A stretch of DNA of 64,000 nucleotides from the sequence record PP989839.1; one strand, given 5' to 3'. The DNA is from Escherichia phage VTCCBPA_322. The notes beneath the pieces are model-generated. The model had not been told where the DNA came from, searched no databases, and saw only the letters and a program-made list of their open reading frames with translations. Both the position numbers and the translations under genes were made by a program. This document shows positions 6,099 through 64,000 of the stretch, one piece after another (position 1 is the stretch's first letter; each line of letters opens with the position of its first letter).

Positions 6099-9000
6099 AC
6101 GCACACACTCCCTTTGATGCAAATCAGGATTGGACCAATCCTTACTGCCAGAACAGTTCCAATGACCCTATGGTAGATGCATTACTTGGTAATGCTTATC
6201 ATGTGGTTCGAACTGTTTACTGTAACTTGGGTAACCTGAAACTTATCTATGACTTCCTTAACCAGTATGGAATGGTACTTGGTGTACAGTCTGAAGCAGA
6301 ACTTAAAGCACTAACTACCAAATCTAAGTATGCACGTATCTATGGCTTCTCCCGTGCAGGTGATCGTCAGGTTACTGACTACTTGTATGTGGAAGGTGAT
6401 CGTACTGGTATTATCCCAGATAATCCAGAAGCAACTGGTTCATGGATTACTGTTGCTACCTCTGGTTCTAATGGCGGTGGTACTCCATCTAGTGAAGGTG
6501 CATATATCCCATGGGTATACTCAAACGGTTCTGCTACTGGTGGGGAAACCTCAATCAACGTACCGGATGGTACGGTGGGTGTACCCTTTATTATTATTAA
6601 TGGTGACATGCAGTATGTAGGCCGTGGTTTTGAGTTTAATGTGGATAGCTTGTCCGTAACTCTGGCTCAACCTCTGGAAGAAGGTGATGAGGTAGTATTC
6701 CTTTTGACGGGAGTGCCTGCTGTACCGGATAATCCTAACGTTAATGACTGGGTTCAGATTAACTGGTTATACAACAATGGTACTGCTGTAGGTGGAGAGC
6801 AGGTTATTGCTATTCCTTATACCTTCCAGTCTATTCCGGCAGTGTATAAGAATGGGCTTCGTTTGTATAAAGGATTAACTACTGAATCATATACTGCTGA
6901 CCCAGATAACCAGCGTATCCTTCTTACTGAACCACTGGTAACCAATGACCGATTGATTGTACAGATTGGTGGAGAAGCACAGGTACTGGAGACATCAGAC
7001 CATACTCTTCAGGAAGTTGCTCGTTCTGCTAATGTGAAGGATAGTGAGGTAATTCTGAGTACAGATACCACACAATTCCTGAATAACAAAAAAGTTATCT
7101 ATTCTATTAGTGAACAGAGAATCTATGGTCTCCCTGCCTTACCAACTAATATATACATTCAATCTGTTTCAAATGGTCAGTTAACTTACTTACCGGGTGG
7201 TATTACTGTAGATTTGCTACCTATTGACTCTGCTATTATTTTACGTGAGGAACTAAAAGAAGAGGGTGGAGACAGGCTGGTTAATGGATTTACTTCCATA
7301 GACTCCATGAAGTTATCAACCATACTTTCATTGGGGGATGTGGTATCTACAGGTCGTTCTAAGTGGGAAATTGTTTCTTCAGAGACCCCTATTGCATTAG
7401 CAAACGGCTTATTCGCTAAGTTACTCAACAGCCTGTACATTGATGATTTTGCAGGTACTGGCACGGATAAAATAAACTCACTAAATGCTTATATAACACA
7501 TGGTATGCAAGCATCCTATGCATCTTCCATGTTACTAGAGGCATACAAGTATTCTCTTACCCCTGTTCATGTGGTATTTACCTCCCGTGTAGAAACGGAA
7601 GTACCACTGCTTTTAATGCGTCACGTTCACTATGACCAGGTTGGTAGTCAAACGTATTTCAACAGGCAGATGCCTGTAGGCTTATATTATGCCCCAGCTG
7701 ATTTAAACACATCCGCCACAGAACCAGTTGTTTTTGAGTTGTCAGGCACTTCTTATGTGAGGAAAACTGGCGTTTTAATTGGCACGCCGGACAACGATAT
7801 TACCGATGTGAACGGTTATATCACGATGTCAGATGGGTTCCTATTCGACCTATCCGTGGCATGTTCTGGCGGTGTCAAGATAGGTCTTAACTTCTCAATG
7901 GCCCCTGGATGTAAAGGCACAAAAACCAGTATAGGAATCACAGAACGTGGCGGTAATCTGGTATCCGCACCTCTGTTAGGAATGTATTTTAGATGGTCAT
8001 GGGGTGCTGATTTCCGTTCCCCTAAAGTGTTGGCTATGCGTCAGGGTATCCATCTTTATAAGGCAAACGCCGGGCTACGTATAACCAACCCTTATGTTGC
8101 ACGAGTTGGTGCTAACGCCGACAATCCAGAATTAGTCTATTCAGCATCTGCATGGACTACTGAAGGTAAAAATCAGAACACAGGTATAACTTGCGATACA
8201 GTTCGTGATTTTGTTATTGATGAGCCTGTCGTTGAATGGTGGCGTCAGGCGTTCGCATTTAACGATACAGACATTCACTTACGAAAGCCGCACGTAGAAG
8301 ATGTAGGTGGCAATATGATTATGCGCCACAACTTTGTGATAGCTAATAGTTATATAGATTTGGATAACTGGTCACAAGTTAACTATACATGCCTTTCCTA
8401 TGGTTTTTATTTTTGCGGCCAAGACGGCAGCGAACGTAAAGTTATTGCTCGCGGTATGCCCCCAGTCGGTGGGTTCTCTAATGGGATGGTTGGTGGAACA
8501 TTCACTAATGCTCCGTTACGTGTAGAGAATATAAGTCCCGCTATGACTGACTATGGGAGCATTGGTAACTGGTCTGCTATAAACTATTTAGGGATGGATT
8601 TCTATCGGGAAATCTTTGTTAACCCTACTACCGGTAATGACGAGAACTCCGGATTTGTTTCTGGTAGGGCTGTAGCATCTCTGGAGCGAGCTATAGAAAT
8701 CATTAATATCATTCAACAACGTGGCAGTTTCCGGGGCAACTTCGTTATTAACGTAAGTGGAAGTATTGCTTTAACCAGGGTGGTTAGGGCATACAAAGAT
8801 TTTCGTATAAATGCTGCGGGTTCTGTTATTACTTCTAGCAGTACCGGACATATAGAAATGAGTGGTATTGATGTAATCCTGGCATCTGGCACGTTTAGTG
8901 GTACTGCTGCTCTATTACGCCATGTAGCAGACAACAATAGGGTTTATTTGATAGGTTCCGCTGTTGTAAACACCCCGGCTATAGTTACGGCATCCATAGG

Positions 9001-53593: not shown

Positions 53594-56158
53594 TTAGTTA
53601 CCTTTCAGTTTATTTAGACGATTACGGTAGAGGGATTTAAACCCAGGAATATCCTCTGGATTCCTCTTGAGATGTTTAACTAAACTATCTAAGTCCAGAT
53701 TTTGAAGGATGTCACTATCACTCCAGCTATAATGGAATAATCCTTTGTACTGATTAAGTATTTCAAAGTATTTATGATTACGTGGGCTGGTCATTTGTAT
53801 GTAAGGTAATAAGTCTTCCCTTGACTTAATGTAACCCATTTCAATGAGCTTCTCCTCTTTACTCCGATGATTTCTTAGGAAATCATACGCCCATTCATAC
53901 TCTGGTTTAAAAATCAGATTCTGTAATGGTTTGAATGTTAGACCCAGTATGTCGAGGATTTCCCAGTATTCCCTGTCATCTAATCCTACATATTCCAGAA
54001 TACCAATACGGTGTTCAGTGACATACTTCTTAAATCCCTTACTGGTAATGACAGGCATCAGTTCCTTAAAACGAACATCGTCAATGTGAATAGCACCACG
54101 TCGTTTAGCCTTGTTAGCTTCTATTTGATTACGGCAGACAACAGTCTCTGCCTTCATCTCATCAGATAACTCATACCATTTCCACATGGTTCCAATCCGG
54201 GCAATTACTGGACTACCAGAAGCAACCTGATTGGCTAGTACGTAGTACTTAGGTTGTTCCACTTCAACAAAACCATATTTCTCATGGCGGCTTGGGTCAG
54301 CAAACTCCTTCTGGATGTATGGTTTATATACCCAATCACCACTTTTATCTCGTACAGGAGTAGTACCAAGAACTGCATTCAATGAAACCAATGCATTAGT
54401 TTTACCAGTTGCTTTGGTTTTATTGGCAGCTATTGTCTTAGCCCGTCTTTCAGCAGCTATCTTAGCTTGCTCTCTGCGATAGTTAGTTGGTTTGTCCCAC
54501 TCATTATATTGAGTGAGGTCAATTACCCGATAACCCATAGCAGTGAACTTAGCTACAGCTTCCTCTGCTGCACCCTTCTTAGGACCAACGACGTGAACAA
54601 AAGCTGTACGCTCCAGGTCATCTCGGTTGTACTCTGGGAAATATGAGAAAGAGTCCGCACAATCAGATAAACGTCGAGTAACTACAACGTTCTTGGTAGT
54701 GAAAATACCAATACCCAAATGGCAGTTATAGCCCATCTTAAAGTAATCAGTAAGTTTACCTTTCACCAGATCAACACGGTTACCCTGGTTCATTATGTAA
54801 CCAGACCATTTAACACCAGTTGCTTTTAAAGCAGCAAGCTGAGGTAAATGTAGATGGCGATATACCAATTCCTGGAATGGATAGCTTGTACCATCTGCAC
54901 GAGTATCTTTAAGAGCACTCATAGCCTTACTATACAGTTTCTTAAGACCTGCATATTCAGGACGAGCTAGTAGTGCTTTATTAGATAAGTTACGCCAATG
55001 CTTGATGTGATGTTTGCGTTGTTTAGCCCATAAGCTAGAGGACATATAGCGTTGAACAGTTCTGTCTGTAACTGCAAGTAAGAAAGATGGATATTCCCAA
55101 TAACGGGTAGATGATTTAGAGGCGTATTCTTCAATCTGCTTAATAGCTTCAGGAATTTTAGCCTTAATCTCCTTCTCCATACGGTCTACTAAATCTACAC
55201 ATAGAGTAGTAATACCATCGTCGGTTAACTTCTGGTTAGACAGTGTTTCTCGACTAGGAGCAATAGCTAGAGTATCCGGTGCAGCCTGAACTACTAAATT
55301 GTCAGCACCAATAATGTTCATAAAGTTGAGAATAAGACCTACAGCCTCTTCACTAGCAGGGCTGGATACTATTGGGTACATTACATTACCGTAACGAACA
55401 AATAGATTACTGTTACCCATATAGCCTTGATACCAGCTATCAGACATATTATAGGAACCAGGTTCAAATGACATGCCTAGTGTATTCAGTAAAGTGTAGT
55501 CGCCCTGCTGAATACTATTACCTTCTTCTGTTTTAACGAGTTTAGGGATACTAAGTTCAGCTTTAATTTCACCGTTAAATACAATAGATGTAATGTAATG
55601 CACAAAGGTATTTAAATCATGCTTGCCTAACTGGAATTTAACTTCCAGGCCAGATTCCTCAGTAGGAATGTTAGTAACGATAGGAACAATTCCGGGTTTA
55701 CCGTCATTCTCAATCGCAGCTTTAGCTACGTTATATACAGACATCTTTCCCTGGTTCCATGAAGTAACCTGAAAGCTATCTGTATAAGCGAACGGGGATT
55801 TACATCCCAGACCAAAGCCACCAGTAACACTACTGTTGGCTTTCTTAGTAGATGCACCATAGACACCATAAATGGAACCAATGAGTTCATCAGGGATACC
55901 ATTACCGTAGTCACGGAATGTAATAAAGTTGTCTGTATCAATAGTGATACGAATAGGAGTATCAGTCTTACCTGCTTCAATATGAGCATCCCAACTGTTA
56001 CAGATAGTCTCACGAACTACTGCTAAAGTAGGATTGTTATATAAGGAAGTACTTAATACATGAAAGAATGCCGGGTCATCAGAGATGCCAAAGGCAATTG
56101 TTTCTTTGCCACCCAGTGTCGCTGAGGTAGCTACTTCATTGGTATCTGCAACTAACAT
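53594..56158 (-). CDS. rIIA-like protein (N-terminal GHKL/HATPase-like segment)
   Basis: 854 aa; N-terminal AVVRETICNSWDAHIEAG resembles the GHKL ATPase N-box; followed by rIIB-like gene. Confidence 0.6.
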   Translation of the reverse strand: MLVADTNEVATSATLGGKETIAFGISDDPAFFHVLSTSLYNNPTLAVVRETICNSWDAHIEAGKTDTPIRITIDTDNFITFRDYGNGIPDELIGSIYGVYGASTKKANSSVTGGFGLGCKSPFAYTDSFQVTSWNQGKMSVYNVAKAAIENDGKPGIVPIVTNIPTEESGLEVKFQLGKHDLNTFVHYITSIVFNGEIKAELSIPKLVKTEEGNSIQQGDYTLLNTLGMSFEPGSYNMSDSWYQGYMGNSNLFVRYGNVMYPIVSSPASEEAVGLILNFMNIIGADNLVVQAAPDTLAIAPSRETLSNQKLTDDGITTLCVDLVDRMEKEIKAKIPEAIKQIEEYASKSSTRYWEYPSFLLAVTDRTVQRYMSSSLWAKQRKHHIKHWRNLSNKALLARPEYAGLKKLYSKAMSALKDTRADGTSYPFQELVYRHLHLPQLAALKATGVKWSGYIMNQGNRVDLVKGKLTDYFKMGYNCHLGIGIFTTKNVVVTRRLSDCADSFSYFPEYNRDDLERTAFVHVVGPKKGAAEEAVAKFTAMGYRVIDLTQYNEWDKPTNYRREQAKIAAERRAKTIAANKTKATGKTNALVSLNAVLGTTPVRDKSGDWVYKPYIQKEFADPSRHEKYGFVEVEQPKYYVLANQVASGSPVIARIGTMWKWYELSDEMKAETVVCRNQIEANKAKRRGAIHIDDVRFKELMPVITSKGFKKYVTEHRIGILEYVGLDDREYWEILDILGLTFKPLQNLIFKPEYEWAYDFLRNHRSKEEKLIEMGYIKSREDLLPYIQMTSPRNHKYFEILNQYKGLFHYSWSDSDILQNLDLDSLVKHLKRNPEDIPGFKSLYRNRLNKLKGN

Positions 56159-56201
56159 TTATTTACTCTCCAGATTAAATGTTGCTTCCTGGTTATGACT
56201 A

Positions 56202-56426
56202 TTAAGAATTTAATGCTGATTTACAGGCTTCAAAGATTTCTTTACGCAATTCCCGTTCTTTTTCTGGTTCTTCATGAGGATTGTAACCAAAAGGACTGTT
56301 TTGCATAAAACTAGCTAGAATTAGTAAATCTTCTTTAGATAGACCATCAATAGTGATGGAGTATTGGTTTTTGCTTTTTACTGTAGCGTTAGCCATTTCG
56401 TTTCTCCGCCATTGCTTGTAGTACAA
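56202..56426 (-). CDS. small hypothetical protein
   Basis: 74 aa ORF in a run of short overlapping genes. Confidence 0.35.
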   Translation of the reverse strand: MYYKQWRRNEMANATVKSKNQYSITIDGLSKEDLLILASFMQNSPFGYNPHEEPEKERELRKEIFEACKSALNS

Positions 56427-56703
56427 ATACTACAGTGTCTGAAATCTGGTCATCAGTAGGCTCAACTAATTGACCATCCTTGTCATACATTTCTTTCAGA
56501 AGTGCATTAAGTTCAGCCATACCAGCCAATACCATTTCTTTGCTTGGCTCCAACCATAACTTACGTTCCTCTGCTAGTGCAGCAATGCACATACACAGAG
56601 AGGCAATGTTTGCAGGACATGCAAGAATATCTCCAGTAAGAGCTACTTCACTTAGGGGTACTGCTTTGCCTGTTTCAGACAAAATTACTTCAGGATTAAT
56701 CAT
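56389..56703 (-). CDS. small hypothetical protein
   Basis: ATG 56703 (MINPEVILSETGK...) 2 nt after the upstream stop; 104 aa. Confidence 0.4.
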   Translation of the reverse strand: MINPEVILSETGKAVPLSEVALTGDILACPANIASLCMCIAALAEERKLWLEPSKEMVLAGMAELNALLKEMYDKDGQLVEPTDDQISDTVVFVLQAMAEKRNG

Positions 56704-56938
56704 GTATTTGCTCCAGGTTATGGGCAGGAATAGGGAAGCATGGATAGTCACCAGTAGGGTCCAGTGTCACTGATACATGTAGTGTATTTGTCATTTGGGT
56801 TAACATAAGAGCAGCATTGAAATCATCCTGAATACAGGCATATACAATGTCACCCTTCTCACCTTCACACATTAGTGGGGTGTCTTTAATGCGGTATTTA
56901 GCAGGCATATGTCCTCCTAAAAGAGTTAATAGAATCAA
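56696..56938 (-). CDS. small hypothetical protein
   Basis: 80 aa; Cys-containing (CEGEKGDIVYAC). Confidence 0.35.
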   Translation of the reverse strand: MILLTLLGGHMPAKYRIKDTPLMCEGEKGDIVYACIQDDFNAALMLTQMTNTLHVSVTLDPTGDYPCFPIPAHNLEQIHD

Positions 56939-56967
56939 AAAAAGACCTCCCGGAGGAGGTCTTAGGT

Positions 56968-57204
56968 TTACTTACTATTTTCTTCAATGAAACGTCTCAT
57001 ACGCTCCTTTGCTTCATCATGCTCCTTAATGGCTACATAGTCTCGTGCATAATAATATGCACACCATAAGCCAAGAACGCATGCAGAGAAGCGAGCCACT
57101 ACGAAGAACATTTCCTCCAGGCTTTGAGCATTGTGCAATGAAAATACAAATTCCAGAACCAGGATGATACTTATAATCATTGCTTGTATAGCTAGTCGTC
57201 TCAT
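56968..57204 (-). CDS. small membrane protein (two predicted TM helices)
   Basis: 78 aa; AIQAMIISIILVLEFVF and FSACVLGLWCAYYYA; overlaps thyX stop. Confidence 0.4.
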   Translation of the reverse strand: MRRLAIQAMIISIILVLEFVFSLHNAQSLEEMFFVVARFSACVLGLWCAYYYARDYVAIKEHDEAKERMRRFIEENSK

Positions 57205-58145
57205 TCAGTAATAGTCTCACCGGGGATTAACTTACGGAATTGGATAAAGTGAAGTAGGTTACCTGAGTACAGATTCCCTTCTTTATCCATGGATGTAACA
57301 CCTTGTTCCCATGTAGCCGGGTTCATGTTATTCACACACTTTTCACCAAGATTCATAGGTGTAGCCTGATGTTCAGTAGGTGAAGCATGAATAGGCTGTT
57401 TCTCTACCAACTTAGCAAACAGGTCAAGGTCATCGCTGATAGTGGATGGCTTACCTTCGAAGTTGTTATAAGAAGCACGGGCACAACGAGCAGCAGAGAC
57501 TTTAAGCAGCAAGCCTAAAATTTCTTCATTACTTGGTTCATCACGAGTAATTCGCTGATATTTGCAATGATTGTAAGCATTAGCACAATCAACACTGCGA
57601 ATATAAGGCAGATGCCAGTCACCTTTCTTGAGCTTTTGCGGAACAGATTCTTCATGAGCCTTCTTCATGGCCTGGGCCAGTAAACGAATTTCTGGTTGGG
57701 CATCCTCATGGTCACGTAAGCCATAAAAGTTAGCCCAACTTGTTGAAGTTACCACGACACGGATATGTGTGAATGGTTCCAAGATACGGTTAACAATCTG
57801 CTTATGTACTTGCCCACGTCGTAACTGTTCAGCATACACAGCAGCAGCAGATGCAGCGTTATCCCAGATAAACTTAGCATCCTCAATTTCCATAGGAGTG
57901 AGTTCTTCTTCTGCTTGCATACCCTTCTGGTTCTTGCCCCAGTGACTGGGCATCACTGGTTCATTACGAACTTGTTCGATGAACTTAGCTGTTGGAATAG
58001 CACGACTGCTTGAAGCATTACGGTTAAATACACGGTGGGTCATAAACTCACTGTGGATGAATCGGGGATAAACCAATTCAAAGGTAGTAATACGAGTTCC
58101 TGTTTCTGGGTGAACGGAATCTGCAATGACAGTTGCCTTAATCAT
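57201..58145 (-). CDS. thyX: FAD-dependent thymidylate synthase ThyX
   Basis: 314 aa; MTHRVFNRNASSSRAIP fits the ThyX signature (R/T)HR-x7-S-x-R. Confidence 0.7.
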   Translation of the reverse strand: MIKATVIADSVHPETGTRITTFELVYPRFIHSEFMTHRVFNRNASSSRAIPTAKFIEQVRNEPVMPSHWGKNQKGMQAEEELTPMEIEDAKFIWDNAASAAAVYAEQLRRGQVHKQIVNRILEPFTHIRVVVTSTSWANFYGLRDHEDAQPEIRLLAQAMKKAHEESVPQKLKKGDWHLPYIRSVDCANAYNHCKYQRITRDEPSNEEILGLLLKVSAARCARASYNNFEGKPSTISDDLDLFAKLVEKQPIHASPTEHQATPMNLGEKCVNNMNPATWEQGVTSMDKEGNLYSGNLLHFIQFRKLIPGETITE

Positions 58146-58588
58146 TAGAATGACCTTAGATAGTTGGTAATACCACTACGGTTTTCTGTAATTTTCTTAA
58201 CCTGAACGTATACCAGTTTAAACTCACTACGAGGTAGTTCCTGTAATACTGCTATACCTTCAGTAAGAGCCACAGAACACGCTACAGCGGTTTCTTTTTT
58301 AAAGGAGTACAAGTCTTCGTACATGATGGCTTCATACTCCCTGCGGAGCATACAGAGAGCATCTCTTGCCTTATCACTTACTTCTTGTGAACCAGCAGAC
58401 ATAGCTAAACTGTATATGATAAAGACTTGTTCAAAAACAAAGTCCAATAATCTATCAGGATTGTTAGTCCCCATGAATAATTTTGTTGTGTAGGAACGAG
58501 CTTTACGGTTGAGTTCGTACTCATTCTCTATACCTTTATTATAAAGAACCGGATTTCGTTCCCTTTTCCGTAGGAATGGGATACGCAT
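58145..58588 (-). CDS. hypothetical protein
   Basis: 147 aa; ATGA-type coupling with downstream thyX. Confidence 0.4.
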   Translation of the reverse strand: MRIPFLRKRERNPVLYNKGIENEYELNRKARSYTTKLFMGTNNPDRLLDFVFEQVFIIYSLAMSAGSQEVSDKARDALCMLRREYEAIMYEDLYSFKKETAVACSVALTEGIAVLQELPRSEFKLVYVQVKKITENRSGITNYLRSF

Positions 58589-58968
58589 TAGTATTTACTA
58601 CCTCTTCTATACCAAGGGTAATGATGGGTAGTACTTTTACCTTTGAATACATCCTTAGTACGTGGATTCTTTTGTATTTGAGCCAGGTAAAGATGCATAT
58701 CATCTCCACACGGGCTAAGCCAGAACTTATCTATGATTCGGTCTACCTTAGATTTCAGATGAGGTTCCGGAGGAATGTATGAAGGGAAAGGTCTGCTAAT
58801 AGTCCATCCTTTCTGAACAAGAGCCTGCATTGTCGTGTAAAGATCTAATGCAATATCATTATCTACTTGATCATGGATAGTTTTACCTAAAGTAAGCATT
58901 GCAGTTTGTTCCAGCTTACCGAAGTCCAGTCCTTGCAGGATAGACTTACCATTTCGTCTGTTTGACAT
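58588..58968 (-). CDS. hypothetical protein
   Basis: ATG 58968 (MSNRRNGKSILQGL...) with AGGT SD; the track N-terminus (to 59070) runs through a terminator and is probably untranslated. Confidence 0.4.
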   Translation of the reverse strand: MSNRRNGKSILQGLDFGKLEQTAMLTLGKTIHDQVDNDIALDLYTTMQALVQKGWTISRPFPSYIPPEPHLKSKVDRIIDKFWLSPCGDDMHLYLAQIQKNPRTKDVFKGKSTTHHYPWYRRGSKY

Positions 58969-58980
58969 AAGAGTACCTGT

Positions 58981-59010
58981 AAATAAAAAAGCCCACGGGT
59001 TAAGTGGGCT
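58981..59010 (-). terminator. rho-independent terminator on - strand (AGCCCAC-GGGTTAA-GTGGGCT then TTTTTTATTT)
   Basis: 7-bp stem 58990-58996/59004-59010; U-run in - orientation; between the Imm-like gene and the next gene. Confidence 0.6.
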
Positions 59011-59085
59011 TGGGTTAGGAGATGGATAAGCAATGAGCTGGAAGTAACTTCCACAAGCACCACTATGCAATGATGCTTAGGTTAG

Positions 59086-59364
59086 TTACTCTGCTTTACT
59101 ACCACCATTGGTTTGAACAACAGTTACGTTTGTAACTTGGTTCTGACCTTTGTTGGACAGTGACCAAATCAGTGCTACTACCCAGAAGACTAAAGACCAG
59201 CCTAATACAATATTGAGCACACCAATACCCCACTTGGAGGCATGGCCTCGTGCAAAAGCAATGATAGTAGGGATAAGGTATACAGCTAGTATGAATAAGA
59301 AAACAAGGATTGCTGCTAAAGATTCCATGATGGTTCCTATGTGAGGTTGAGTTAGTTTCTTCAC
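59086..59364 (-). CDS. superinfection immunity (Imm-like) membrane protein
   Basis: 92 aa, two TM helices; YLIPTIIAFARGHASKWGIGVLNIVLGWSLVFWVVALIWSL closely follows the Imm-type pattern (P-[ST]-I-I-A-F-A-R ... GW ... W-V-[VI]-A-L-I-W). Confidence 0.6.
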   Translation of the reverse strand: MKKLTQPHIGTIMESLAAILVFLFILAVYLIPTIIAFARGHASKWGIGVLNIVLGWSLVFWVVALIWSLSNKGQNQVTNVTVVQTNGGSKAE

Positions 59365-59401
59365 AAATAGCCCAACTATGCTGGGCTATTTAGGCAGCTA
59401 C

Positions 59402-59602
59402 TTACTCTGCGTCAGAGACAGCAGTCAAAGCTTTACGGATGTAACCACGCACAGAACGGTAACTTTCTTTTACAGATACTGTTCGCCCATCAATCAGATG
59501 AATTACAGCACCGACTGATGTCTCATCTACGTCTACTACGTTAGTTGCAACAATAGTTTTACGCACGGTACTTCCAACAGGAGTTACTTGAAATACTGAC
59601 AT
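59402..59602 (-). CDS. small hypothetical protein
   Basis: 66 aa. Confidence 0.35.
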   Translation of the reverse strand: MSVFQVTPVGSTVRKTIVATNVVDVDETSVGAVIHLIDGRTVSVKESYRSVRGYIRKALTAVSDAE

Positions 59603-59632
59603 GTTGTTTCCTTAATTAAGCTGGATAGCCTT

Positions 59633-60139
59633 TTATTTTGAAGGTCTAGCAGCTACTGGTTGGTTTTCCTGGTTCTGATACTTGCCATTGTAATTAGCAG
59701 GTTCCTGAACCAGATGAAATAATACTTGAGCTATCCCAGCACCAGCCGGGATATGTAGTTTTTTACGACCATGATAGACCAGTTCAAGGGTAAGATACCC
59801 TTTCCATCCTGGTTCTATTACGGTATTAAACACTGATAATGCACGTCTTGCCCACGTAGACTTATCGTGAACGATAGCTACACAGGAAGGAGACATGTTG
59901 AACTTCTCAATTGCTGAAGCCAAGGTGAACTTACCGAGATGGTGTGATACTTGATTCCCATCAACGACTTTCACCATTGGAATCAACCCAAATAAGCGAT
60001 AGAAGGTAATATCTTGTTTGATACGAATATCGTAACCAGCTTCACCCAATCCATAGCTTACACCATGCTCGGATACCTTGCGGTCTGGGATATCCAGCAA
60101 CTGAGATGAACGGTATAGAGAATTACCATTAACAACCAT
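59633..60139 (-). CDS. dCTP deaminase (dUTPase-fold)
   Basis: GYDIRI, VIEPGWKGYLTLELVY and IPAGAGIAQVLF match conserved dCTP deaminase segments. Confidence 0.65.
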   Translation of the reverse strand: MVVNGNSLYRSSQLLDIPDRKVSEHGVSYGLGEAGYDIRIKQDITFYRLFGLIPMVKVVDGNQVSHHLGKFTLASAIEKFNMSPSCVAIVHDKSTWARRALSVFNTVIEPGWKGYLTLELVYHGRKKLHIPAGAGIAQVLFHLVQEPANYNGKYQNQENQPVAARPSK

Positions 60140-61314
60140 TATTTCATTCCTTTAGGGATATGAACTACCTCCCCAAAAGGTACGGTAGCATTGGGATTAT
60201 TCAGAACACACCAGATGATAGGAATATCAAATGGTAATTCTTCCATAGGATGAACATACATATCGGAGAATATGATTGCAGCAGTTGGTTTATTCTTAAT
60301 AATCCAATCACGTACTGGCACAAGGCTTGTACCACCACGACCAGTAATCTTAATCTCTTCAAAAGTATCTTCTTCAGTGATGTCTATTTCTTCTTGGATA
60401 ATATCGTCGAAGGTAATTAGGGACATCTTCTTAGGATTGAACTGGCTCTTAACGTAGGCAACCTCTGAGTTAAATCGCAGAGAGTCTGCACTACTAATAG
60501 AACCAGATACATCCTCAAAGTAGGCCAAGTGTCGTAAACGTCCTTCATCATCTTCCAGTGAAGGTAGATAAATGTCAGTGTAACGACGGTTAGGTCTGGC
60601 CCACGTATAATGAGTATCATCAATGTCGGTAAAGAAGTTCATCAGAACTTCCTGCCATGGAACCACTGGTTTGAGGAATTGGGTAATAACCTCTTCCATA
60701 CGACCAGCACCTTTACCAGGCAATGTTCCACCAGCCATTTTCTGGCTCTGCATTGCACGTACTACGTTGTTGACGACAGCACCCTGGGACTGCCCCGAAG
60801 TGGGGGATTTCATGTCGCCAGCAAGACCTGCTCCAGCACCCCCTGACGGCTTCTGCCTTTTCTGAGGGTTCTTCATCAAGTCATCGTAGATGTCTTCTTC
60901 GACCCACCCTTTGTATTGTGGGTCTTTGCAAATACCTTCATCAATGCCAGTGAACTTGTAACCATCTTCTTCTAACTGAAGGTTAATGAAGTGGTCACAT
61001 GCCTGGTTCCAGATTTCTGGGTCACGGCTTCCACGACGAATATCGTGTAGGTATGCCACATGCCAAAGTTCATGCATTAATACTGTTTTTCTTGCATCTG
61101 GGCACATCCAGATGAAGAAATCAGGATTGAAATGGAGTTCTATCCCATCAGTACATGCAGTGGGACAATCCTCACGTTTCCATGAGAACTTAAGACTACA
61201 TAGTAATGAACCAAAGAACGCAGCAGACTTGCCTAGGAAAGCCTGAGCTTGAATACGGTCATACTCACGCATGAGTTGTTCATCACTAAGGGAGTGCTGA
61301 GGAAATTGGTTCAT
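60139..61314 (-). CDS. VWA-like protein with N-terminal HExxH metallopeptidase-like motif (partner of the AAA+ ATPase)
   Basis: 391 aa; MHELWHVAYLHD (HExxH); C-terminal acidic segment LITFDDIIQEEIDITEED; directly downstream of the MoxR-like gene. Confidence 0.5.
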   Translation of the reverse strand: MNQFPQHSLSDEQLMREYDRIQAQAFLGKSAAFFGSLLCSLKFSWKREDCPTACTDGIELHFNPDFFIWMCPDARKTVLMHELWHVAYLHDIRRGSRDPEIWNQACDHFINLQLEEDGYKFTGIDEGICKDPQYKGWVEEDIYDDLMKNPQKRQKPSGGAGAGLAGDMKSPTSGQSQGAVVNNVVRAMQSQKMAGGTLPGKGAGRMEEVITQFLKPVVPWQEVLMNFFTDIDDTHYTWARPNRRYTDIYLPSLEDDEGRLRHLAYFEDVSGSISSADSLRFNSEVAYVKSQFNPKKMSLITFDDIIQEEIDITEEDTFEEIKITGRGGTSLVPVRDWIIKNKPTAAIIFSDMYVHPMEELPFDIPIIWCVLNNPNATVPFGEVVHIPKGMK

Positions 61315-61318
61315 TGTT

Positions 61319-62371
61319 TTATCCGTGAAGGTAACGAGAGATATTAGCAGCAGCCTTACGCCATTCAGGGGTAGCCTGAAGTTCTGGCAATGCTCTACCT
61401 ACTGTACGGAAGTACAGAATCTTATGAGTGAACGTTTTAAATCGTTCAATGTACTGAAGAACATCAGCGAAGTTCTCTTCAGTAGTTTTGTTAGCCAGAT
61501 GGTTAACGGTAGCCCAGCACAGGTTGTTATCTTCTGGTAGTGCACAGCCCAAGGGGTCTTTTACTACCTTTTCAATCGTAATCATACGATTGTATACCTG
61601 AGTAAATTGAACAAACTCTGTAGCCTTACCAGCAGTAACGTGCCCTGCATAGTAGATAGAATCTTCGTCAGGCAGAGCACCTTCAGGGCGGTTCTTAAGG
61701 TCTTTGTTAACAAAGTCCCAGGTACGAGGGCAACAGAACGTTTTATTCTTATGTGCTGGGTCAAAGTCATGCAGATAACCGGGGTTAGCATGTAAGAATG
61801 CAACCAGACGTTCATCCCATTCTTGAGGAATCATTACGTCTTCAACAAAAATGTCGAAGTTGAGTTCCATTTCGAAGTGGACAACACGAGACTGCATTGC
61901 AGTACCCAGTGGGTTAACGATGGCACGGTCAGTAGCTTTGTTACCTGCACATATAATCATCACATTAGGATGAAGTTTTTTCTGACCAGTCATACGGTCT
62001 AAAATCAGTTTATATGCAGCAGCTACTACTTCTTTTCTGGCTGAGTTGAACTCATCAAGGAACAGGAGCCAACCATTATATCCTTCCGGTACTTTATCTC
62101 CCTCAATAGGGAATAAGTCAGCGAATGGGATAAACTCTGCACGGTCACCATTACGGAATGGTAGGCCAGACAAGTCTTCCGGGGCAGAAGTAGACAGACG
62201 ATGGTCTATCAGCTTCATACCAAATTCTTCTGCAACAGAGCGAATGATTGCAGATTTACCCATACCTGGTGATGAAGTCAGGAACGGTACGTTACCTGCT
62301 TGCAGGGCACGGATAATAAAGTTACGGGCCTGACGTGTATTACATACGGTCAGTGAGTCAATGCTCGCCAT
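61319..62371 (-). CDS. MoxR-like AAA+ ATPase
   Basis: Walker A SSPGMGKSAI; Walker B LLFLDEFNS; sensor-1-like ICAGN; Arg-finger-like TAMQSR. Confidence 0.65.
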   Translation of the reverse strand: MASIDSLTVCNTRQARNFIIRALQAGNVPFLTSSPGMGKSAIIRSVAEEFGMKLIDHRLSTSAPEDLSGLPFRNGDRAEFIPFADLFPIEGDKVPEGYNGWLLFLDEFNSARKEVVAAAYKLILDRMTGQKKLHPNVMIICAGNKATDRAIVNPLGTAMQSRVVHFEMELNFDIFVEDVMIPQEWDERLVAFLHANPGYLHDFDPAHKNKTFCCPRTWDFVNKDLKNRPEGALPDEDSIYYAGHVTAGKATEFVQFTQVYNRMITIEKVVKDPLGCALPEDNNLCWATVNHLANKTTEENFADVLQYIERFKTFTHKILYFRTVGRALPELQATPEWRKAAANISRYLHG

Positions 62372-62405
62372 TTACTTACTCTCCTAAAGTTAATGGAATT
62401 ACTAA

Positions 62406-62732
62406 TTAAGATTTAATACAAGGGTATGCTGTATCAATTGCCAGCAGAACCATGTCTGATGGTACTTTTACTGCATTAACCTTTCGGTCGTACAGAATAA
62501 TAGTGGCTACTTTGTCAAAGACATTTCCTAACTTTAAACTATCTGGTACGCAGTTTTTGCCTGCTTCTACACCCATAGTAACCATGCCCATGAAGTAACC
62601 TTGGTTCACAAAGCTATCATTCCCGGCCTTATAAGCAGCAGCAGCTTCCAATAAGGTTTCACGGCTGGATGCTTGAGCATTGAATGACAGAGCTGATAAA
62701 GCTACTACAGCAACAGCAATTAAAGTTTTCAT
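62406..62732 (-). CDS. small secreted (periplasmic) protein
   Basis: 108 aa; signal-peptide-like MKTLIAVAVVALSALSFNAQA; two Cys in the mature part. Confidence 0.45.
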   Translation of the reverse strand: MKTLIAVAVVALSALSFNAQASSRETLLEAAAAYKAGNDSFVNQGYFMGMVTMGVEAGKNCVPDSLKLGNVFDKVATIILYDRKVNAVKVPSDMVLLAIDTAYPCIKS

Positions 62733-62918
62733 TTAGTTACCTTTTAACTCGTTGAGTTGAAGTACTCCGGTAGGGGTTAATGACCACCCAAGACCAGCGT
62801 TGAACTGTACTAGGCCCAGTTTCTTAAGAGACTGTGCGGTTTTGTTATTACGGTTGCTGGTGGCAGAGCCACCTTGAACCATACGAAGGAAGATTGCTTG
62901 GGACTGAGTTAATTTCAA
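62733..62918 (-). CDS. small hypothetical protein
   Basis: 61 aa; abuts downstream gene. Confidence 0.35.
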   Translation of the reverse strand: MKLTQSQAIFLRMVQGGSATSNRNNKTAQSLKKLGLVQFNAGLGWSLTPTGVLQLNELKGN

Positions 62919-63124
62919 AGGTAATATCCTTCCAGGTTTATTGGTGTTACAAATGTACTAGCTGATAGACAGAAAGACTTACCAGTTTCTACAGCAACAG
63001 CAGCAGGCTTACCATCGGGTAAGTGAATCTTTAAACATACTGACTGGTTATATATAAAACCACAGGCAGGTTGCACATCACCGAAGGTCACTTCATTGCT
63101 TTCAGAACGATTCGTTACTTTCAT
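62915..63124 (-). CDS. small hypothetical protein
   Basis: 69 aa; ATGA-type overlaps both sides. Confidence 0.35.
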   Translation of the reverse strand: MKVTNRSESNEVTFGDVQPACGFIYNQSVCLKIHLPDGKPAAVAVETGKSFCLSASTFVTPINLEGYYL

Positions 63125-63309
63125 TTCTTCTCCGGTACGAACTGCATTACACAGTTTTGATTACGAGGGATATTCAATTCACATTCATGCTTGAGGGTTT
63201 GCGTTACAGAATTTGGAGTAGAACCAAAGTAGGTATTAGAAATAGCTACGAATCCTGCACCTATCAAACCACCTAGTAAGAATGAGAAAAATGCAATCTC
63301 TTTATACAT
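63121..63309 (-). CDS. small membrane protein
   Basis: 62 aa; N-terminal TM helix IAFFSFLLGGLIGAGFVAI. Confidence 0.35.
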   Translation of the reverse strand: MYKEIAFFSFLLGGLIGAGFVAISNTYFGSTPNSVTQTLKHECELNIPRNQNCVMQFVPEKK

Positions 63310-63332
63310 TTCCTGGCTCCAGGATGTTTAAG

Positions 63333-63364
63333 TCAAAAAAAGACCTCCCTTCAATAGGGAGGTC
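63333..63364 (-). terminator. rho-independent terminator on - strand (GACCTCCC-TCAATA-GGGAGGTC then TTTTTTTGA)
   Basis: 8-bp stem 63343-63350/63357-63364; long U-run in - orientation; downstream of the Ig-like gene. Confidence 0.6.
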
Positions 63365-63414
63365 AAACTTGAGGGTTTCATTTCAGGGTTTATAACCCCA
63401 AACAAAGGATACCC

Positions 63415-64000
63415 TTATTCTGCAACAGTAACAGCGATGGTTACATCGACCGTACCGTTGGTAACTACTACAGAAGTATCTTCGCCAGCAGCTACCGGTT
63501 TAACCGTCAGTACGTTACCAGCAATGGTAGCTGTAGCACGAGCAGAATCTGGGGCAGTTTTAATAGACAATGTACCAGCAGAAGAACCAACAGGCATAGC
63601 AGCAATGGTTACAGTCTTACCGGCAGCAGTATCATCAGCAACAGACAGAGCCAGTGAATCAGGAGTAGCTACCAGTGAGCTTGCTTCGTAGTAGCCTACA
63701 GCCAGCAGAGACTCATCTTCTACAGTGGTTCCATTAGCATCAGTAACAATTACTTTATAAGTACCGGCAGAAGCAGCTGTTACGTTGTTAAGGGTCAACG
63801 TTGCAGTAGCAGCGGATGCGTTATCACCAGAATCAATATCGGCGAATACTGCACCGGCAGTATCGGCTTTAAATTGCCATTTATAAGTAAATGGTGCTTT
63901 ACCACCTGCTACATCAACATGCCAGTTAATGTCTTCGCCTTCGATAGCAGAGACTACACGAGGCAGTTTAGTAGCAATAGTCAGTCGTGGAGTAGCTTTC
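63415..64000 (-). CDS. Ig-like domain protein, 5'-truncated at window edge (capsid decoration protein candidate)
   Basis: Frame open from 63415 to window end; track M at 63798 is an internal TTG; Ig-like strands (FTYKWQF...TLNNVTAASAGTYKVIVTDANGT). Confidence 0.45.
   Translation of the reverse strand, partial: KATPRLTIATKLPRVVSAIEGEDINWHVDVAGGKAPFTYKWQFKADTAGAVFADIDSGDNASAATATLTLNNVTAASAGTYKVIVTDANGTTVEDESLLAVGYYEASSLVATPDSLALSVADDTAAGKTVTIAAMPVGSSAGTLSIKTAPDSARATATIAGNVLTVKPVAAGEDTSVVVTNGTVDVTIAVTVAE

Follow-up and report, generated by a model that had tools for sequence, protein, structure and literature searches.

Escherichia phage VTCCBPA_322 (PP989839.1) was analysed over a stretch of 64,000 nucleotides, hereafter the window. 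Two minus-strand open reading frames (ORFs) lie side by side in it, one encoding a 350-amino-acid (aa) AAA+ ATPase (61319-62371) and the other a 391-aa protein that combines an HExxH motif with a von Willebrand factor A (VWA) domain (60139-61314). An original prediction from the sequence alone had put a MoxR-like ATPase and a VWA/HExxH partner at this locus, and both ORFs are present at exactly the coordinates it gave. The two genes very probably specify a two-component MoxR-AAA+/VWA-type machine with an HExxH domain, a molecular identity that we assign from sequence with high confidence. The gene pair is already known: it carries annotation in close relatives, and for jumbo phages a description of this architecture has been published.

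A megablast search with positions 59600-62800 placed the window in Gamaleyavirus, the G7C-like/N4-like coliphages of the family Schitoviridae, with 95.5% identity to phage PBM-3 and 91-94% to phages of the G7C group; nucleotide identity to Gamaleyavirus genomes was 91-96%. The G7C reference annotation equates the pair with N4 gp24 ('ATPase', 'similar to N4 gp24') and gp25 ('VWA-like domain-containing protein, similar to N4 gp25'). Judged by synteny and this annotation, the window genes are the orthologues of N4 gp24 and gp25, and these names are used below. The features of the locus are as follows.

62381-62385, minus strand: strong Shine-Dalgarno sequence AGGAG, 9 nucleotides (nt) 5' of the gp24 ATG, read from the sequence
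61319-62371, minus strand: gp24, 350-aa MoxR-class AAA+ ATPase (ORF, Pfam, PHROG, AlphaFold2 (AF2) model, Foldseek)
62252-62275, minus strand: Walker A/P-loop SSPGMGKS, residues 33-40
62075-62200, minus strand: insert of about 40 residues (58-99) between strands b2 and b3, of low predicted local distance difference test (pLDDT) score in the AF2 model
62051-62068, minus strand: Walker B LLFLDE, residues 102-107 (sequence and alignments)
61940-61942, minus strand: sensor-1 Asn144, which ends strand b4 and follows a b-hairpin (residues 131-144) in the AF2 model
61886-61888, minus strand: Arg162, invariant, at the putative arginine-finger position according to model topology
61724-61726, minus strand: Arg216, invariant, at the putative sensor-2 position in the lid domain according to the model
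61315-61318, minus strand: 4-nt spacer from the gp24 stop codon (TAA) to the gp25 ATG
60139-61314, minus strand: gp25, 391 aa, HExxH domain plus VWA domain (ORF, Pfam, AF2 pLDDT 81)
60556-61266, minus strand: DUF2201_N putative metallopeptidase domain, residues 17-253 (Pfam), with a structured core at about residues 11-150
61045-61074, minus strand: HELWHVAYLH, residues 81-90, HExxH plus H90, candidate metal site (alignments)
60559-60609, minus strand: conserved interdomain motif YTWARPNRRYTDIYLPS, residues 236-252, near-invariant and predicted to be disordered
60157-60528, minus strand: VWA domain (DUF2201), residues 263-386
60499-60513, minus strand: metal-ion-dependent adhesion site (MIDAS) DVSGS (D268, S270, S272), completed by T329 (60328-60330) and D351 (60262-60264)

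The proteins encoded by gp24 and gp25

The ATPase consists of an AAA+ core (about residues 1-220) followed by a confidently modelled helical C-terminal extension (AF2 pLDDT 88). It matched Pfam AAA (28.8 bits against a threshold of 21.2, E=1.9e-6) and phrog_1297, labelled 'ATPase' (1e-133). AAA_5 scored 18.1 bits, below its gathering score of 22, while bacterial homologues exceeded that score (27-30 bits). Foldseek against the PDB gave NorQ as the best match (9qh4, E=6e-8; TM score 0.62, target-normalised) and CbbQ2 (6l1q) next, followed by dynein and Rea1/midasin; in a PDB sequence search the AAA modules of midasin were the sole matches (6e-5). The term MoxR-like therefore rests on fold and homologues, since the window protein itself misses the AAA_5 gathering score. 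A search of NCBIfam with gp24 and gp25 returned no matches.

Conservation of gp24 was assessed in 58 phage sequences (50-88% identity) and in 63 bacterial homologues. G38, K39, S40, D106, E107, N144, R162 and R216 do not vary among the 58 phage sequences, and each motif residue is kept in 59-62 of the 63 bacterial homologues, exceptions being mostly alignment gaps (G38, K39 and S40, 59-60/63). The full set of ATPase motifs claimed for this protein (Walker A and B, sensor 1, and the Arg-finger and sensor-2 positions) is thus present and conserved. The poorly modelled insert between strands b2 and b3 bears an invariant motif, RLSTSAPEDLSGLP, in which R58, P64, D66, G69 and P71 do not vary and which is retained in a V5-like homologue. 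By analogy, this insert is a candidate helix-2 insert or pore loop that may touch the VWA partner; in NorQ, the helix-2 insert/pore-loop region contacts the VWA partner NorD (NorQD cryo-EM, PMC13036017).

In phage U1G, gp24 is split at about residue 106/107, within Walker B, by some 940 bp containing an HNH ORF annotated 'phage intron' (retrieved stretch L084, 1977-3911). This insertion is a probable intron; with the Rfam group I intron model it scored 23.7 bits (E=0.005), short of the gathering score of 50. Searches with tblastn also found gp24 in two pieces in pSb-1, pYD6-A and JSF3.

The partner protein gp25 matched DUF2201_N (E=7e-57, 193.5 bits against a cutoff of 23.2) and DUF2201 (E=4e-34, 117.7 bits against 26.4), as the original prediction had guessed, and both domains were found by Pfam in all 58 members of the phage alignment. 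The predicted HExxH motif is HELWH at residues 81-85, followed by H90, and lies on a helix (residues 72-87) that follows a small sheet of strands (residues 42-62) in the AF2 model. H81, E82, H85 and D107 are invariant in the 58 phage sequences and H90 is nearly so; of 78 bacterial homologues, all retain both H81 and H85, 76 have H90 and 71 have E82. A more diverse alignment of 74 sequences (22-49% identity), with jumbo-phage, V5-like, bacterial and plasmid members, kept H90 and D107 as near-invariant residues and all five MIDAS residues (D268, S270, S272, T329, D351) as invariant ones. The MIDAS was equally well preserved in bacteria, where D268, S270, S272 and T329 are present in 78/78 homologues and D351 in 76/78. 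The second protein thus carries the DUF2201 domains and a complete, invariant MIDAS, and the result that would have counted against the original prediction, a partner with neither a VWA nor a metallopeptidase-like fold, did not arise. Its VWA domain is also recognized by VWA_CoxE in 11 of the 58 family members.

Similarity of the N-terminal domain to zincins is fainter. A PDB search with the family profile gave weak non-VWA matches to the N-terminal region, and these were to zincins alone (minigluzincin MJ1213, E=0.06; BepA, E about 2), while a permissive Pfam scan of the 58 family members found scattered sub-threshold matches to the zincins Peptidase_M91, YgjP-like and PhageMetallopep. The single gp25 sequence had no match in the PDB sequence search; family profiles also matched integrins weakly.

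Between the two domains lies YTWARPNRRYTDIYLPS, of which W238, R243, R244, Y249 and P251 are invariant and in which pLDDT falls below 50 at residues 235-242 and 247-257; its counterpart in a V5-like homologue reads 'RKPGRR'. A segment that is conserved yet disordered is typical of motifs that become ordered on a partner, and we propose YTWARPNRRYTDIYLPS as a candidate element for engaging gp24.

The two genes had been described as translationally coupled, a claim that the sequence bears out in part. The junction, GGATAAAACAATG, leaves 4 nt between the genes, with no overlap and a weak GGA upstream of gp25. In G7C and several relatives this very junction is occupied by a 477-bp gene for an HNH homing endonuclease. 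Such an interposed gene indicates that tight coupling is not obligatory; for the window genes it is plausible. In G7C the endonuclease gene is gp24.1 (7670-8146 of retrieved stretch L001), and the corresponding site in the window is the 4-nt spacer. At its other end, gp25 overlaps the start of the dCTP deaminase gene by 1 nt (TAATG).

The annotation of gp25 orthologues is unreliable in many records. gp25 matches phrog_1314 (E=2e-143), a group labelled 'HNH endonuclease', and the same label has been given to its orthologues in PV053165, NC_070871, NC_070872 and others. The protein consists of DUF2201_N and VWA domains and an HNH domain is absent; the label probably arose from the homing-endonuclease gene beside gp25 in G7C-like phages. 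In U1G, gp25 is represented by two overlapping ORFs (167 and 224 aa; L084, 795-1969), both labelled HNH endonuclease and both matching the gp25 profile, which reflects a frameshift or a sequencing error.

Genomic setting and distribution

Within the window, gp24 and gp25 occupy the strand opposite to the virion genes and the 3576-aa virion RNA polymerase (vRNAP), in a gene run that also holds dCTP deaminase, ThyX, rIIA/B, a helicase and DNA polymerase; in N4-type phages we take this run to be the early/middle region. The pair occurs throughout Schitoviridae, and both genes are listed among the signature genes of the whole family (Wittmann et al., PMC7650795). It was also found in Asteriusvirus-type jumbo phages, where the genes are adjacent and ordered as in the window, in V5-like Vequintavirinae, in some cyanophages and in other phages.

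The gp25-like family extends well beyond phages, with 13,207 representative clusters (50% identity) at E<=1e-3. We surveyed 80 bacterial or metagenome-assembled genome (MAG) loci. Nearly all loci with enough upstream flank had a same-strand gp24-like gene upstream of the gp25-like gene, either adjacent or overlapping, or at a distance of about 0.9 kb, and this linkage is kept across some 60 bacterial loci, plasmids and jumbo phages. The conserved upstream position in bacteria and the adjacency in jumbo phages argue for a functional link between the two genes. At 31 of the 43 spaced bacterial loci the gap contains a single conserved gene, whose product is about 300 aa long and matches DUF3150 below threshold. 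This three-gene form (ATPase, DUF3150-like, gp25-like) is found in many bacteria, Acidobacteriaceae included, and on a conjugative Burkholderia plasmid (for example L023, 2990-6140, and L085, 6888-10158, with about 31 others among the retrieved stretches). The middle gene has no homologue in the window or the phage loci, nor a PHROG match, and a literature search on DUF2201 and DUF3150 found nothing relevant.

The Burkholderia plasmid carries the three-gene form between a PRTRC cassette and type IV secretion system (T4SS) genes (VirB/TraI/TraD). In Edaphobacter the module has a RES toxin on one side and an AAA_21/DUF4276 pair on the other, with Sipho_Gp157 also flanking, and in Pseudovibrio it is flanked by DUF4942, DUF5983 and an extra DnaN. 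Some chromosomal loci are regions resembling integrative and conjugative elements (ICEs) or defence islands. Mobile DNA of three kinds harbours the family, namely lytic phages, conjugative plasmids and ICE-like islands.

Homologues whose HExxH lacks the Glu (HTVMH, HLVMH, HAVMH) form a Desulfobacter/Desulfobulbus clade, with one further case in an Armatimonadetes genome (L068, L046, L073, L081, L038, L065 and L034). In them both His of the motif are retained, as are H90, D107 and an intact MIDAS, and at the two loci with annotated neighbours (L068, L046) the gene pair is adjacent and stands amid housekeeping genes. These sequences suggest that the Desulfobacterota clade is a non-proteolytic variant.

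Two database entries deserve comment. The Acinetobacter baumannii 'plasmid' pRBH2-3 (NZ_CP110465.1, 75 kb) encodes a phage-type RNA polymerase together with a gp24-like and a gp25-like gene, between which lie HNH and small ORFs; it resembles the genome of an N4-like phage, although a phage-plasmid is also conceivable. JANQNF010000027.1, a 69-kb contig from an 'archaeon' MAG, is as long as an N4-like genome and encodes gp24 and gp25 that are about 79% identical to those of the window; almost certainly a coliphage-like contig has here been mis-binned with archaeal DNA.

The immediate neighbours of the pair in the window are a 108-aa secreted-type protein and dCTP deaminase. The 108-aa ORF (62406-62732, minus strand) lies immediately upstream of gp24; its N-terminus resembles a signal peptide, and it matches Rap1a immunity proteins below threshold (E=0.005). 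In some relatives it is annotated 'Tai4', a protein resembling those that give immunity to type VI secretion system amidases, here in a lytic phage. A 92-aa membrane-protein-like ORF (59086-59364, minus strand) stands where G7C has gp27.1, annotated there as a superinfection-immunity protein resembling T4 Imm. Strong terminator-like hairpins flank the gene run at 63342-63364 (minus strand) and 56942-56963 (both strands), the latter being bidirectional. Sigma-70-like promoter sites in 56500-64000 are fewer than expected (6 against a shuffled mean of 15.8), a deficit consistent with N4-type transcription, and an Rfam scan of 56000-64000 found no structured RNA.

Functional interpretation and its alternatives

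Genetic evidence comes from the V5-like phage Bas54, whose homologues of both proteins are full-length (hhalign probability 99.4% and 99.6%). Its MoxR gene, bas54_0063, and metallopeptidase gene, bas54_0055, are non-essential on Escherichia coli K-12, while in transposon data on the clinical isolate CFE311 both were depleted, with log2 fold changes of -7.23 (q reported as 0) and -2.20 (q=0.009), respectively, and knocking out bas54_0063 renders the phage sensitive to DS-28, a defence system of two genes (HIDEN-SEQ preprint, 10.1101/2025.11.20.689424). Data S6 in supplementary file 9 of that preprint is headed 'resampling_K-12_vs_CFE303', while its command and inputs name '311'; label and data appear to be mismatched.

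The following mode of action, drawn largely by analogy, seems to us somewhat more probable than not. The ATPase would assemble into an ATP-driven ring, presumably a hexamer. We infer that the two proteins form a complex, in which gp25 would dock on the gp24 ring through its VWA domain and/or the RPNRRY segment, in the manner of the 'finger-in-pore' contact between NorQ and NorD. The MIDAS of gp25 would bind an acidic residue of a target protein, ATP hydrolysis by gp24 would remodel this target, and the N-terminal HExxH domain would cleave it or at least hold a metal beside it. The target may be a host protein, involved in defence or in takeover, and the function could be a general 'establishment' function common to phages and conjugative plasmids. 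A host-directed role soon after infection, against a defence or takeover target, is a tentative proposal that we rate somewhat below evens; it is favoured by the Bas54 genetics, the plasmid and ICE-like occurrence, and the early/middle genomic position, which together disfavour a role in virion assembly. Taken as a whole, the explanation towards which we lean slightly is a MoxR/VWA-peptidase machine whose target, early to midway through infection, is a host or defence protein, and which does not serve virion assembly.

Several observations weigh against this explanation. Two fold searches with gp25 gave VWA matches alone and so lent no support to the putative N-terminal zincin fold. The catalytic Glu is absent in 7 of 78 bacterial homologues that retain the metal ligands, so proteolysis may not be a universal activity, and the Desulfobacter loci sit among housekeeping genes. 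Counter-defence genes tend to vary between phages, and the family-wide signature status of gp24 and gp25 would be unusual for such genes. The Bas54 homologues are distant (22-27% identity) and their genes non-adjacent. Moreover, the Bas54 peptidase gene is far less depleted than the ATPase gene, and the second gene found with DS-28 is a different one, bas54_0140 (10.1101/2025.11.20.689424). Literature searches found no functional study of gp24/gp25 in N4 or another N4-like phage, and no experimental report of peptidase activity for DUF2201_N/DUF2201; the transposon-mutagenesis and mRNA-silencing papers that were consulted made no mention of N4-like phages. Two papers were considered and set aside: the CRISPRi-ART paper, which mentions neither phage N4, Schitoviridae, gp24 nor VWA and whose 'gp25' is that of PTXU04, and a paper on Vibrio phage HH109, in which 'N4-like' appears in the reference list alone and neither an ATPase nor a metallopeptidase is mentioned.

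The pair might instead be a chaperone for metal insertion or enzyme activation that loads or resets a metal site in a phage or host enzyme, its N-terminal His/His/His/Asp site holding a metal instead of cutting peptides. Models for such a role are NorQD (Fe into NO reductase), CbbQO (Rubisco activation), CoxDE and CobST. The nearest solved structures to the ATPase, NorQ and CbbQ, fit this explanation, as do the 11/58 VWA domains that match VWA_CoxE and the presence of nucleotide-metabolism enzymes next to the pair. A further fit is that conservation is stronger at H81, H85, H90 and D107 than at the Glu, a residue that the housekeeping-flanked Desulfobacterota clade no longer has. In all 58 phage sequences, however, the catalytic Glu is invariant, and no client enzyme is consistently linked with the module across the phage, plasmid and chromosomal loci examined; as for the adjoining enzymes, we know of no need of dCTP deaminase or ThyX for such a chaperone. 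We consider this explanation improbable.

An assembly chaperone with an attached protease, which would fold or assemble structural proteins and process them proteolytically, is likewise doubtful. It is the role that Iyer et al. 2021 (PMC7824862) propose for the pair found in jumbo phages of group 2.2, which is homologous to that described here, and the same paper cites a MoxR/VWA pair reportedly required for tail assembly in Acidianus two-tailed virus. In the Schitoviridae signature set the pair stands alongside structural genes, and no prohead protease was noted within the examined part of the window. Against this, gp24 and gp25 share the early/middle strand with replication genes, opposite the virion genes; conjugative plasmids and bacterial chromosomes, which produce no virions, also carry the module; and both Bas54 genes are dispensable for plaque formation on K-12.

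In N4-like and V5-like phages alike the pair belongs to the replication module, close to rIIA/B and a helicase, and this position raises a third alternative, an AAA+-assisted protease that removes DNA-bound or crosslinked proteins, as Wss1/SPRTN does with Cdc48. Such a DNA-transaction helper would clear incoming or replicating DNA of bound proteins, examples being the vRNAP complexes ejected by N4-like phages and the relaxase complexes of plasmids. The extra DnaN beside the Pseudovibrio module, the T4SS/TraI genes beside the plasmid module and the co-depletion of the Bas54 helicase bas54_0068 on CFE311 can all be accommodated by this explanation, but the argument is circumstantial throughout. 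Pfam detected no DNA-binding domain in either protein, and SprT/Wss1-type zincin similarity was not seen in Pfam scans, no dedicated comparison having been made. We regard a helper of this kind as quite unlikely.

Finally, a phage-carried defence or superinfection-exclusion system, which the vWA-MoxR conflict systems of Kaur et al. 2020 and the Edaphobacter module between a RES toxin and an AAA_21/DUF4276 pair might bring to mind, is very improbable, given that no PADLOC model matched (gp24 gave a sub-threshold DolB match, E=0.0063, 13.8 bits, and gp25 nothing), that the flanking ORFs encode small proteins and dCTP deaminase with no VMAP-like third component or effector domain, that the pair belongs to the core gene set of a strictly lytic family, and that the Bas54 data indicate counter-defence.

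The preferred reading, a machine directed at a host or defence protein, would have wider implications. A more far-reaching proposal, which we offer as speculative and rather unlikely, is that gp24/gp25 and their three-gene relatives on conjugative plasmids and ICE-like islands are a widespread 'establishment' machine of invading DNA, in which a MoxR ring would employ the MIDAS-bearing VWA adaptor to capture a particular host protein, of defence or housekeeping, and the fused zincin would inactivate it; in Schitoviridae this would have turned into a fixed core function. If true, this would define a new class of counter-defence, namely ATP-driven, adaptor-guided proteolysis of host immunity proteins, encoded by two of the fewer than 20 genes common to all N4-like phages. 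Should the Bas54 result carry over, it would point to a general ATP-dependent neutralization of host proteins by invading DNA, and it would be relevant to the selection or engineering of therapeutic coliphages; several G7C-like phages are phage-therapy candidates.

Comparison with known systems

The MoxR/VWA pair examined here can first be set beside NorQ-NorD and CbbQ-CbbO. NorD and CbbO have no HExxH domain, and compared with theirs the VWA domain of gp25 is minimal, at about 125 aa, and shows no clear long finger. Relative to NorQ and CbbQ, gp24 is extended at its C-terminus by some 130 aa of additional helical structure, and the window pair is without a linked client enzyme. Midasin/Rea1 combines an AAA ring and a MIDAS domain in a single eukaryotic chain of about 5000 aa, with six AAA modules and no peptidase domain. 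The vWA-MoxR ternary systems of Kaur et al. 2020 have a third component and effectors, neither of which lies beside the window pair. A viral MoxR/VWA pair is also present in the archaeal Acidianus two-tailed virus, which, as far as it is described by way of PMC7824862, has no peptidase domain and a role in extracellular tail development.

Among tailed phages the resemblance is much closer. The MoxR AAA+/metallopeptidase-vWA pair that Iyer et al. 2021 (PMC7824862) described in jumbo phages of group 2.2 has the two-gene architecture seen in the window, and in Asteriusvirus an AAA gene is followed by a DUF2201_N+DUF2201 gene, both tblastn matches of the window proteins; the jumbo-phage proteins share about 25-30% identity with the window pair and are larger (441 and 474 aa). 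The homologues in Bas54 and Bas48 (Vequintavirinae) keep the HExxH, the MIDAS and the motif RLSxxxPxDLSGLP, with rIIA-rIIB-helicase downstream as in N4-like phages, but their genes are about 3.4 kb apart on opposite strands, whereas the window genes are adjacent on one strand. Bas54 is the sole member found with genetics. Closest of all are N4 and G7C gp24/gp25, with which the window shares an identical gene order and neighbours (gp17.x upstream, dCTP deaminase gp26 downstream), the difference from G7C being that the HNH gene gp24.1 splits the pair there and is missing from the window. Our analysis confirms the existing annotation of this pair and sharpens the hypothesis of its function, within a kind of system that is not new.

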